Shown: positions 25,698 through 27,378 of the stretch, piece after piece | How positions within the stretch are numbered: position 1 is the stretch's first letter | How the letters are laid out: each line of letters opens with the position of its first letter | Origin: Pseudobdellovibrionaceae bacterium | Lineage (GTDB): Bacteria; Bdellovibrionota; Bdellovibrionia; Bdellovibrionales; UBA1609 | Direction of reading: 5' to 3' | Length of the DNA: 64,000 nucleotides | Assembly (NCBI GenBank): GCA_025354795.1 | Contig: JANXMF010000075.1 | Coordinates: forward strand, 3,161-67,160 | Notes under the pieces: model-generated | Database searches by the model: none | What the model was told of the DNA's origin: nothing | The model's input: the letters and a program-made list of their open reading frames with translations, nothing else | Made by a program: the position numbers and the translations under genes

Positions 25698-26627
25698 ATG
25701 AGAACCTTGGTATTTTTGGCCGTGCTCGGTGGTCTGATTTATTTTATGTATGCGCTTCGGAATGCGCCACCGCCCCAGACGGACACACCCCGCCCGACCA
25801 AAGCCAGGCCCCCAGTCACCGCCAGGCCACCGCCCCCGCCGGCGGCGGTGATGCCCATTCAACCTGGGCCACCGGTGAAAGTGGAAACCTTGCGTCCCAC
25901 CGTACGCGAAGAGCCCCAGGTGGTCACCGAGGCCCAAGCGAAATCTAGAGCCCGCGTCTTGCCCTACCATTTGGTCGACGGCTTGATGGTGGTGCAAGGC
26001 GACCTGGTGGCGGGCGTGCCATTAAAGGCCGATCTTCCCCCCACCGGCCTGGTGGAAATGCTACCGGTCAAACTTTGGCCCCAAGGTAAGGTGCCCTACC
26101 ACATTCAACCCGATGTGGTGCGGCCCGAGCGCGTCGCCCAGGCCGTCGCCTTTTTCGACGGAACGGCCGTGCACTTGGTACCTTATAGTAATGAAGATGA
26201 CGCGATCGTTTTTATCGACGCGAACGGGGAGTGCAAATCCTATGTCGGTAAAGTGGGAGGAAAACAACCTGTGTTTATAGGCGCGGACTGCGGCCCGCGG
26301 GAGATCGCCCACGAAATCATGCACGCCCTTGGTTTTATCCATGAGCAAAACCGCACCGACCGCGACGAAGCGCTGCAAGTGCATTTTGAAAACATTGATG
26401 AACGCTACAAGGACAATTTTGAAAAGCTAAGCCCGGAATTTATGAAGGTGAGCGGTCTGGGCGACTTCGATTTCAAATCACTGATGATATATCCGGCATG
26501 GATGTTCGCCAAAAACGGCCGCTCCACCATGGAACCAAAGAGCCAGGAAAAACTAATTGAGCCCGGGTCCGTGTTAAGCGCGCTGGATCTAGAGCGCCTT
26601 AAAAAAGCCTACGGCGCGAGTCCTTAG
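25698..26627 (+). CDS. astacin-family (M12A) zinc metalloprotease with N-terminal anchor and Pro-rich linker
   Basis: It has the full astacin signature HEIMHALGFIHEQNRTDRD and a Met-turn region (SLMIY). Confidence 0.85.
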   Translation: MRTLVFLAVLGGLIYFMYALRNAPPPQTDTPRPTKARPPVTARPPPPPAAVMPIQPGPPVKVETLRPTVREEPQVVTEAQAKSRARVLPYHLVDGLMVVQGDLVAGVPLKADLPPTGLVEMLPVKLWPQGKVPYHIQPDVVRPERVAQAVAFFDGTAVHLVPYSNEDDAIVFIDANGECKSYVGKVGGKQPVFIGADCGPREIAHEIMHALGFIHEQNRTDRDEALQVHFENIDERYKDNFEKLSPEFMKVSGLGDFDFKSLMIYPAWMFAKNGRSTMEPKSQEKLIEPGSVLSALDLERLKKAYGASP

Positions 26628-26858: not shown

Positions 26859-27199
26859 TGGTGGCCCCAGACTGACTTGAACAGTCACGTCCTTGCGGAC
26901 ACTGGATTTTCTTACCACTCCGGCTTTCGCCGTCTCTCACTTCGAGAGTTTGTGGTCTGGACTATGCCTTAACCGTTTGTCTTTCGACCGTTAGGTCCCG
27001 CTCGTCTAGTCTCTACACCTTCACTGACATTTTCTCGTCAGAGCTTGGCTCGGCATTAGCAATCTGAAAATTTCAGATAAGCCTCTACCGAATTTGGGCG
27101 GTTCTACGTCCTCAGTTTCCCGAGTCTACGCACTCAAATTTTGTCGGCTTAAAACCGACCGTCTGAGTCCAGCGCGTCTACCAATTCCACCATGGGGCC
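26859..27199 (-). tRNA. tRNA-Leu (inferred anticodon CAA) interrupted by a group I intron; exons 27199-27165 and 26910-26859
   Basis: The acceptor stem pairs perfectly (GGCCCCA/UGGGGCC) and is followed by A73 and an encoded CCA. The D-arm is GUGGAAUUGGUAGACGC and the anticodon stem is CUGGA/UCCAG. The long variable arm is GUCC-GCAA-GGAC and the T-arm is GACUG-UUCAAGU-CAGUC. The joined exons are 87 nt. Confidence 0.9.
26911..27164 (-). ncRNA. group I intron, IC3-like, 254 nt, no internal ORF
   Basis: It contains GCCGAGCCAAGC and GAAGGUGUAGAGACUAGACG, which match the conserved core I recall from the Azoarcus tRNA-Ile intron and the cyanobacterial/plastid trnL introns. The helices I can assign are listed below.
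- P2: CUCGG-GAAA-CUGAG
- P3: CCGC/GCGG
- P4: UUCGGUA/UGCCGAG
- P5: AUCUGAA/UUCAGAU
- P6: CUGAC/GUCAG
- P7: GACUA/UAGUC
- P9: hairpins CUCUC/GAGAG and CGGC-GAAA-GCCG
The intron ends in a terminal G, directly before the 3' exon AAAAUCC. Confidence 0.85.
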
Positions 27200-27339
27200 A
27201 CTTATAAATTTTGAAAGATCAAAGCATCCTGCGCTTAAGATCGGTAGATCCTTCTACCAATCTATTTTCTTTTTCTACCAGTCGTTTTGAATTCAAATTC
27301 AAACCAACCACTTACAGCCCAGGTAAAATGGCGACAGTC

Positions 27340-27378
27340 TTTTGAGTCCAGCGCGTCGACCAATTCCACCAAGAGGCC
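27340..27378 (-). pseudogene. 5' fragment of an intron-less tRNA-Leu(CAA) (positions 1-38 only)
   Basis: GGCCUCUUGGUGGAAUUGGUCGACGCGCUGGACUCAAAA matches the spliced 5' part of the neighbouring tRNA-Leu at 36 of 39 positions. It reads straight through the exon junction (CUC|AAAA) and then loses similarity. I found no matching 3' half. Confidence 0.8.

Follow-up and report, generated by a model that had tools for sequence, protein, structure and literature searches.

Few features of group I introns are as well conserved as the U·G wobble at the 5′ splice site, for which the catalytic core has a dedicated receptor. A class that departs from it has been described under the name "Leu.3Cg": 72 introns with C(-1) paired with G in P1, "all in Proteobacteria," whose splicing "needs testing"; in the same work, Rfam hits of at least 18 to 20 bits were accepted when they lay inside a split tRNA (Williams 2020, bioRxiv 10.1101/2020.01.27.920355). 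The C(-1) class itself is thus already published, and our literature search found no later paper mentioning it. Here, we describe a new member, a split tRNA-Leu(CAA) gene (26859..27199, on the minus strand, as are all window features below) in a 64,000-nucleotide stretch of DNA from a Pseudobdellovibrionaceae bacterium (GenBank assembly GCA_025354795.1, contig JANXMF010000075.1, positions 3,161 to 67,160; the window). Between C34 and A35, the gene carries a group I intron without an open reading frame (ORF) that falls into one family with the tRNA-Leu(UAA) intron of bacteria and plastids and into the Leu.3Cg class, and that probably splices through a P1 helix in which C(-1) pairs with G.

The anatomy of the gene can be read directly. 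ARAGORN run with introns allowed (option -i) returned tRNA-Leu(caa) at the expected position, its intron (36,254) being exactly 254 nucleotides long; its default run found nothing in the 64-kb window. The 5′ exon (27165..27199, 35 nucleotides) reads GGCCCCAUGGUGGAAUUGGUAGACGCGCUGGACUC from 27199 to 27165 and comprises the 5′ strand of the acceptor stem, the D arm, and the 5′ strand of the anticodon stem, followed by C32, U33, and C34; it ends ...CUGGACUC, with C(-1) at 27165. The 3′ exon (26859..26910, 52 nucleotides), reading AAAAUCCAG...UGGGGCCACCA from 26910 to 26859, begins with A35 to A38 and continues through the 3′ strand of the anticodon stem, a long variable arm, the T arm, and the 3′ strand of the acceptor stem to A73 and an encoded CCA. 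Between them lies the intron (26911..27164), group I, IC3-like, and ORF-less, identified by its match to the Rfam model Intron_gpI and by its homology to at least 93 other introns with covarying helices. Its terminal nucleotide, the omega-G, is the G at 26911, and the intron separates the wobble base C34 from A35 at the junction CUC/...G/AAAA (slashes mark the splice sites).

Under an E-value threshold, the intron matched Intron_gpI (RF00028) over the full length of the model (positions 1 to 253) with 30 bits (E = 1.8e-5), and one relative, L001, scored 21.9 bits against the same model; a scan of the window at the curated Rfam gathering thresholds gave no hit at all. An unconstrained minimum free energy (MFE) fold of the intron region gave z = -4.55 against shuffles. 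In this fold, P1 forms between ACUCAGA (27162..27168; exon A31 C32 U33 C34 and intron A1 G2 A3) and UUUGAGU (27132..27138), the internal guide sequence; C27165 is Watson-Crick paired with guide G27135, where group I introns are expected to have the U·G wobble. The guide UUU could in addition pair with A35 to A37 of the 3′ exon as P10. The loop of P1 carries the extra hairpin that had been proposed in an earlier note on this DNA (27143..27159; GUCGGUU-UUA-AGCCGAC), which in the MFE fold reaches up to 7 bp (GUCGGUU 27159-27153 with AGCCGAC 27149-27143), and relatives keep a hairpin at the same place with other sequence.

The remaining helices complete a group I core. The P2 hairpin CUCGG-GAAA-CUGAG (27111..27124), P6/P6a (27018..27048), and P9.0/P9/P9a/P9b (26915..26955) appear both in the MFE fold and in the RNAalifold consensus. 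Alignment and sequence delimit the P4-J4/5-P5/P5a-J5/4-P4′ domain (27049..27092), with A-rich J4/5 (27086-27084), J5/4 (27057-27055), and a wobble pair, U27087·G27054, in P4. The segment 26960..27017 holds J6/7, P7 (GACUA 27011-27007 with UAGUC 26964-26960), the 3′ strand of P3 (26998-27001; partner 27098-27101), and P8 (26967-26995), as placed by the Rfam alignment and supported by two-sided changes between lineages in P7. A pattern combining exon, guide sequence, and J3/4 matched once in the window and in none of 100 shuffles.

Conservation among relatives was assessed by scanning one genome per species with a pattern built from the D arm of tRNA-Leu, YUC, the guide-sequence core, and J3/4-P4, which gave at least 120 matches; the counts of relatives and loci given below are among the matches listed. 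Parsing these yielded at least 93 further split tRNA-Leu(CAA) genes besides that of the window, with the junction ...YUC, an intron of 217 to 280 nucleotides ending in G, and then AAAA and a stretch complementary to the anticodon stem; the terminal G was present in 95 of 98 extracted relatives. The hosts include Bordetella, Achromobacter, Burkholderia, Cupriavidus, Comamonas, Steroidobacteraceae, Rhodanobacter, Xanthomonadales-type genomes, and five Bdellovibrionota metagenome-assembled genomes (MAGs). RNAalifold applied to a 92-sequence alignment gave 58 consensus pairs, of which 30 had changed on both sides, and recovered the anticodon stem, P1, P2, P4, P5, P5a, P6, P7, P8, and P9. The covarying pairs include P7 and also the anticodon stem, whose two strands are parted by the intron (column pair 2/325, with 55 double changes). 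P1 positions -3 to +2 were paired in 92/92 aligned sequences, in which C(-1) and the guide GAG had been fixed by the search pattern. The guide-sequence assignment made earlier is upheld by this pairing and by a scan for the catalytic core alone (described below), and the earlier placement of the C34/A35 boundary, with a C(-1):G pair in P1, is borne out by the MFE fold, by ARAGORN -i, and by the identical junction in the at least 93 relatives.

The five Bdellovibrionota MAGs (L011, L025, L044, L105, and L119) have in common with the window both the exon sequence and the string running from the guide sequence into P2, UUGAGUGCC, and all five have a P1-loop hairpin at the same place but of different sequence. 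In three of them (L025, L105, and L119), the neighbor order nusA-rimP-GNAT-X-OMP beside the tRNA is that of the window, with NusA 73 to 77% identical, features that point to the Bdellovibrionota as the phylum of the window. In Kerstersia gyiorum and an Alcaligenaceae strain (L024, at 647-728, and L034, on the opposite strand), a complete intron-less tRNA-Leu(CAA) lies within a few kilobases of the split gene.

The same alignment bears on where the 5′ splice site lies. An alternative P1, in which exon GACU pairs with intron GGUC, would retain a U·G wobble and cut after U33. The earlier note had raised this possibility, and the pairing does exist in the window sequence; the U33 site itself did not stand, since just 27% of alignment cells have GACU and GGUC paired, and neither the five closest relatives nor the clade of beta- and gammaproteobacterial C(-1) introns show the pairing. 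Cutting there would moreover leave a 6-nucleotide anticodon loop, and the alternative helix competes with the conserved P1-loop hairpin. We rejected the U33 site on its lack of conservation and regard it as scarcely credible.

A second scan, of metagenomes, addressed the nucleotide at -1 with a pattern for the catalytic core only, leaving exon and guide sequence unconstrained, and 87 introns could be typed. Outside Leu(CAA), a U preceded each splice site that could be placed with confidence, in 32 Leu(UAA) introns and in 35 introns of other tRNAs, e.g., Met(CAU)-type and Arg(CCU). C(-1) was convincing in four Leu(CAA) genes only, all with the junction CUC/...G/AAAA. The P1 of the form CUC/AG..UUGAG was plain in three of these four; the fourth, L159, had been misdelimited by ARAGORN, and its junction was read by eye.

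A neighbor-joining (NJ) tree of 58 Leu introns with 200 bootstraps separated the C(-1) introns into two groups. The window group (the window and five Bdellovibrionota-type C(-1) introns) was monophyletic in 161/200 bootstraps, and the beta/gamma C(-1) clade, counting the one or two U(-1) introns in it, in 198/200; a single clade uniting every C(-1) sequence appeared in at most 2/200. Beyond its own group, the window intron has U(-1) Leu(UAA) introns as its nearest neighbors, and L203, a U(-1) Leu(UAA) intron, is placed inside the beta/gamma C(-1) clade. These placements suggest that C(-1) was acquired at least twice. Since a U(-1) intron sits within a C(-1) clade and the two C(-1) groups never join, the intron family tolerates either base. 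The simplest reading would be that the family moved between paralogous tRNA-Leu genes more than once or else followed a U34C change. In one Burkholderiales MAG (L097), a U(-1) tRNA-Leu(UAA) intron gene (827-1250) lies 588 nucleotides upstream of a C(-1) tRNA-Leu(CAA) intron gene (about 1415-1750).

We infer from these comparisons that the intron splices, and any statement on its rate or on a helper is likewise inferred. In the predicted pathway, guide UUUGAGU would form P1 with exon ACUC and intron AGA, free guanosine would attack the bond 3′ of C34, guide UUU would form P10 with the AAA of the 3′ exon, G26911 would enter the G-binding site, and exon ligation would yield the 7-nucleotide anticodon loop CUCAAAA. 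Position -1 is a C because the intron lies directly 3′ of the first anticodon base, which is obligatorily C in a CAA tRNA; the guide G that wobbles with U in Leu(UAA) pairs Watson-Crick with C here, so that a change in the guide is unnecessary. In the Tetrahymena ribozyme, C(-1) raises the undocking rate of P1 about 80-fold (PMC1891724), and in the closely related Azoarcus ribozyme, CAC is tolerated better than any other change of the CAU target (PMC2241849). Together, these two precedents make reduced but sufficient splicing the most likely outcome; by analogy, they suggest that C(-1) would cost weaker P1 docking and slower chemistry without loss of splicing, a cost that seems affordable for a minor tRNA.

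Several points weigh against predicted splicing at C(-1). The equivalent mutation inactivates the Tetrahymena intron (Williams 2020, bioRxiv 10.1101/2020.01.27.920355), and our literature searches turned up no experiment on the splicing of Leu.3Cg introns. The 30-bit match to the group I model is below the Rfam gathering score of 50 for this family, and the invariance of C(-1) and the guide GAG among the relatives is partly by construction, both having been fixed in the search pattern. A second, intron-less tRNA-Leu(CAA) may also lie elsewhere in the source genome, outside the 64-kb window, as L024 and L034 have both kinds.

Much of this could be accommodated if the split gene were a splicing-dead pseudogene, with the first splicing step blocked by the C-G pair and another tRNA-Leu reading the UUG codons. 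The inactivating Tetrahymena mutation, the faster undocking, the fact that the window is only part of a genome, and the intron-less copies retained by L024 and L034 all fit such a gene. Several observations speak against this, however: exons, omega-G, and core are intact in at least 94 species-level genomes, the helices show compensatory changes that extend to the anticodon stem parted by the intron, and the C(-1) state arose at least twice and persisted. Moreover, at many loci the sole neighboring intron-less copy is a truncated 5′ half. We therefore hold a pseudogene to be improbable. The earlier note had left three options for the intron, namely splicing with an atypical C(-1), another mechanism of site selection, or impaired splicing; given the conservation and covariation across many genera, the last appears the least likely.

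Less improbable, though still rather unlikely, is that C(-1) splicing needs compensation elsewhere, either in a loosened receptor for the cleavage-site pair or in a protein helper. Some mitochondrial group I introns are aided by aminoacyl-tRNA synthetases; a protein helper of the introns considered here is hypothetical. A candidate for the RNA version lies in P4, in the pair two steps from the tandem A·A of J4/5-J5/4. This pair is wobble-type in 84 of the 92 genomic C(-1) introns (U·G in 66 and C·A in 18) and in all 4 metagenomic ones, 88/96 in total, whereas it is Watson-Crick in 58 of 67 U(-1) introns. U·G and C·A swap isosterically at this position within a clade, and a matched pair of neighbors shows the same difference, U(-1) L203 having C-G and C(-1) L237 having C·A; in the window, the pair is U27087·G27054 (columns 94/130 of alignment A1). 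These counts are phylogenetically nonindependent and effectively represent about two lineages, and the association has exceptions on both sides, since 8 of the 92 C(-1) introns are Watson-Crick at the pair and nine U(-1) introns are not (8 U·G and 1 A·G). The P4 wobble may nonetheless be a compensatory feature for C(-1). Another candidate, the invariant G·U that closes P5 next to J4/5, was rejected as C(-1)-specific compensation because this pair is common in U(-1) introns too.

Upstream of the split gene in the window lies an intron-less 5′ half of a tRNA-Leu(CAA) (27340..27378, 39 nucleotides). It has 3 mismatches to the real 5′ exon in 35 positions and runs to ...GGACUCAAAA, beyond which the similarity stops, at the junction CUCAAAA/GAC; the earlier observation that this fragment reads CUCAAAA thus holds. 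Fragment and gene are separated by a 140-nucleotide spacer (27200..27339) with repeated TGGTAGA/TCTACC, and like motifs occur in the spacer of L025. Among the matches listed, such a 5′ half, ending ...GGACUCAAAA(A), is present in 25 of the 93 other loci, in the same orientation and 213 to 292 nucleotides upstream (start to start); with the window included, the figures are 26 of 94 loci and 179 to 292 nucleotides. The 25 loci are L001, L004, L012, L019, L021, L025, L029, L031, L035, L040, L045, L050, L052, L062, L065, L078, L084, L089, L090, L091, L096, L104, L109, L114, and L116. A Steroidobacteraceae MAG (L074) has a shorter 5′ fragment, from the acceptor strand to the D arm, about 31 nucleotides upstream of its split gene.

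One conceivable role for the fragment is that of an alternative 5′ exon. Its junction ACUC-AAA is fully complementary to guide UUUGAGU, with seven Watson-Crick pairs possible, and in nine loci it is identical to the real 5′ exon. However, the functional 3′ exon always fits the functional 5′ exon and not the fragment: in the window, the acceptor strand of the fragment would leave a U·U mismatch with the 3′ exon, and in L045, L052, and L091 only 5 of 7 acceptor pairs could form. With the fragment lacking altogether in 68 of 93 loci, use as an exon is highly improbable.

The fragments look instead like displaced resident genes: in 17 of the 26 loci the fragment and the functional 5′ exon are unlike, and in the Rhodanobacter, Lysobacterales, and Dokdonella loci, the D loop and stems of the fragment differ from those of the downstream gene. 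Their surroundings point to integrating elements. In 14 loci, trbI-trbG-trbF-trbL lie downstream of the split tRNA on the other strand, starting in most cases 260 to 290 nucleotides past the tRNA 3′ end (L052, 58-5325; also L019, L029, L036, L057, L062, L078, L084, L100, and L104). The fragment is present in eleven of the 14; in the remaining three, at least part of the spacer is there, and two of these have upstream sequence too short to contain a fragment. A block consisting of the spacer, the tRNA, and 3.4 to 3.9 kb downstream, encoding TrbI, TrbG, TrbF, and TrbL, is common to one Lysobacterales locus and several betaproteobacterial loci. An integrative and conjugative element (ICE) resembling Tn4371 appears to end at the split tRNA in these trb loci, the block being common to gamma- and betaproteobacteria. 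Among the Bdellovibrionota relatives, L025 (5307-6503) and L011 have a tyrosine integrase gene 128 nucleotides downstream of the split gene, and such a gene lies 128 to 174 nucleotides downstream in L025, L011, and L004; L025 has the window synteny and the fragment as well. The idea that an integrase gene always directly follows fragment-bearing loci was rejected, as this is true of L004, L011, and L025 only.

The spacers of the beta/gamma loci are mutually homologous and were found almost only where the fragment is present. An Rfam scan of the beta/gamma spacer found no known RNA, RNAalifold gave only weak, mostly invariant hairpins, and a plasmid search with spacer plus gene matched the intron part only, leaving the spacer unmatched. 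The beta/gamma spacers contain CTAGGAGCCA-N-ATAGGAGCCA repeats, and the TGGTAGA/TCTACC motifs of the window and L025 spacers resemble a tRNA D-loop string. The spacer repeats may be recombinase arm sites.

Neither an integrase homolog, nor trb genes, nor a tRNA 3′ half matching the fragment was found in the 64-kb window, so at most a scar remains there; no displaced 3′ half convincingly fitting the fragments was found in the 8-kb loci. The window fragment is probably the remnant of a displaced resident tRNA-Leu(CAA), apparently cut in its anticodon loop by an element bearing the split copy. L105 and L119 have the locus in common with the window and lack the fragment, a state that recombination between the 35-nucleotide direct repeats would give. 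The layout and its association with trb and integrase genes are supported by observation, and the window may, from these, be read as an integration scar. More broadly, we tentatively propose, as an idea somewhat more apt to fail than to hold, that the intron-split tRNA-Leu rides integrating elements (Tn4371-family ICEs in beta/gammaproteobacteria and a tyrosine-integrase element in Bdellovibrionota), that these elements wreck the resident anticodon loop and supply their own copy, and that the intron shields that copy from the integrase. We speculate that an intron placed inside the attachment (att) core, CUC/AAAA, protects the copy of the element from its own integrase; if this were true, C(-1) would be the price of protecting a gene with a CAA anticodon. 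Our literature search found no paper that describes an element-borne copy as an intron-split tRNA-Leu or that links Tn4371 with tRNA introns, and among the leads of the analysis, this connection with integrating elements is the most novel.

A similar layout was seen on a plasmid. In pCTX-M3 (L241, NC_004464.2), an intact, unannotated tRNA-Leu(UAA) gene with a U(-1) group I intron lies at 1495-1793, next to aac(3)-IId, and about 160 nucleotides upstream (1322-1340) is the tail of a second anticodon arm, ...GGACTTAAAAAG, in the arrangement seen at the CAA loci. The intron portion of the query has matches in more than 1,000 plasmid records, most of them enterobacterial, of which pCTX-M3 was examined. 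Around the split gene of the window, a promoter scan gave no promoter-like site on the minus strand. At 26572-26611, the Rfam motif GP20-b is matched weakly (14.6 bits, E 5.4), most likely by chance.

These findings describe a natural family of introns with a Watson-Crick C-G pair in place of the wobble, apparently acquired more than once and kept in many genera. The family offers a ready-made system for studying what the wobble really contributes and how its absence might be compensated, e.g., by a wobble-type pair in P4. Split genes of this kind are missed by default tRNA finders and at the curated Rfam threshold, and their genomes consequently seem to be without a tRNA-Leu(CAA). The occurrence of split copies at element ends beside truncated resident genes suggests a route of spread and a possible selective use of the intron.

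Compared with known systems, the arrangement around the gene recalls elements that perform "gene replacement," in which an element-borne homolog supplants a disrupted, unrestored target gene (Mageeney et al. 2020, PMC7192596). The main target of Tn4371-family ICEs is tRNA-Leu, with att cores TTTTTCAT, TTTTTTAT, and TTTTTTGT, and that of ICE_KKS102 is GATTTTAAG (PMC9960961, PMC2789088); we found that GATTTTAAG, when reverse complemented, gives the anticodon loop of tRNA-Leu(UAA), CUUAAAAUC. The fragments described here likewise stop inside an anticodon loop, CUCAAAA; unlike those elements, the window has no integrase, trb genes, or 3′ half.

As to the intron, the IC3 intron of Azoarcus tRNA-Ile(CAU), a structural model system, is likewise a small, ORF-less tRNA intron, but it interrupts another tRNA, after position 36, and naturally has U at -1. 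Its core strings, in what we take to be the Azoarcus sequence, are nearly identical to those of the window intron (CAAAUUCGG, GCCGAGCCAAGC, and GAAGGUGUAGAGACUAGACG). The tRNA-Leu(UAA) intron ("Leu.3Ug") of cyanobacteria, e.g., Anabaena, of plastids, and of some proteobacteria has the same insertion point between nucleotides 34 and 35, the same P1 design, in which exon CUN and the first intron bases pair with ..UUGAG.., and the core motifs CAAAYUC, GAGCCAAG, and AAGGUGNAGAGA; the difference is that its anticodon is UAA with U(-1) in a U·G wobble, whereas the window gene has anticodon CAA and C(-1). With the Leu.3Cg class, the window intron has in common the tRNA-Leu host, the insertion after nucleotide 3 of the anticodon loop, the Watson-Crick pair of C(-1) with the guide G, and the omega-G. 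It differs in that its nearest syntenic relatives are Bdellovibrionota MAGs (Deltaproteobacteria in older taxonomy), in its extra P1-loop hairpin, and in the position of its group in the NJ tree, apart from the beta/gamma clade.

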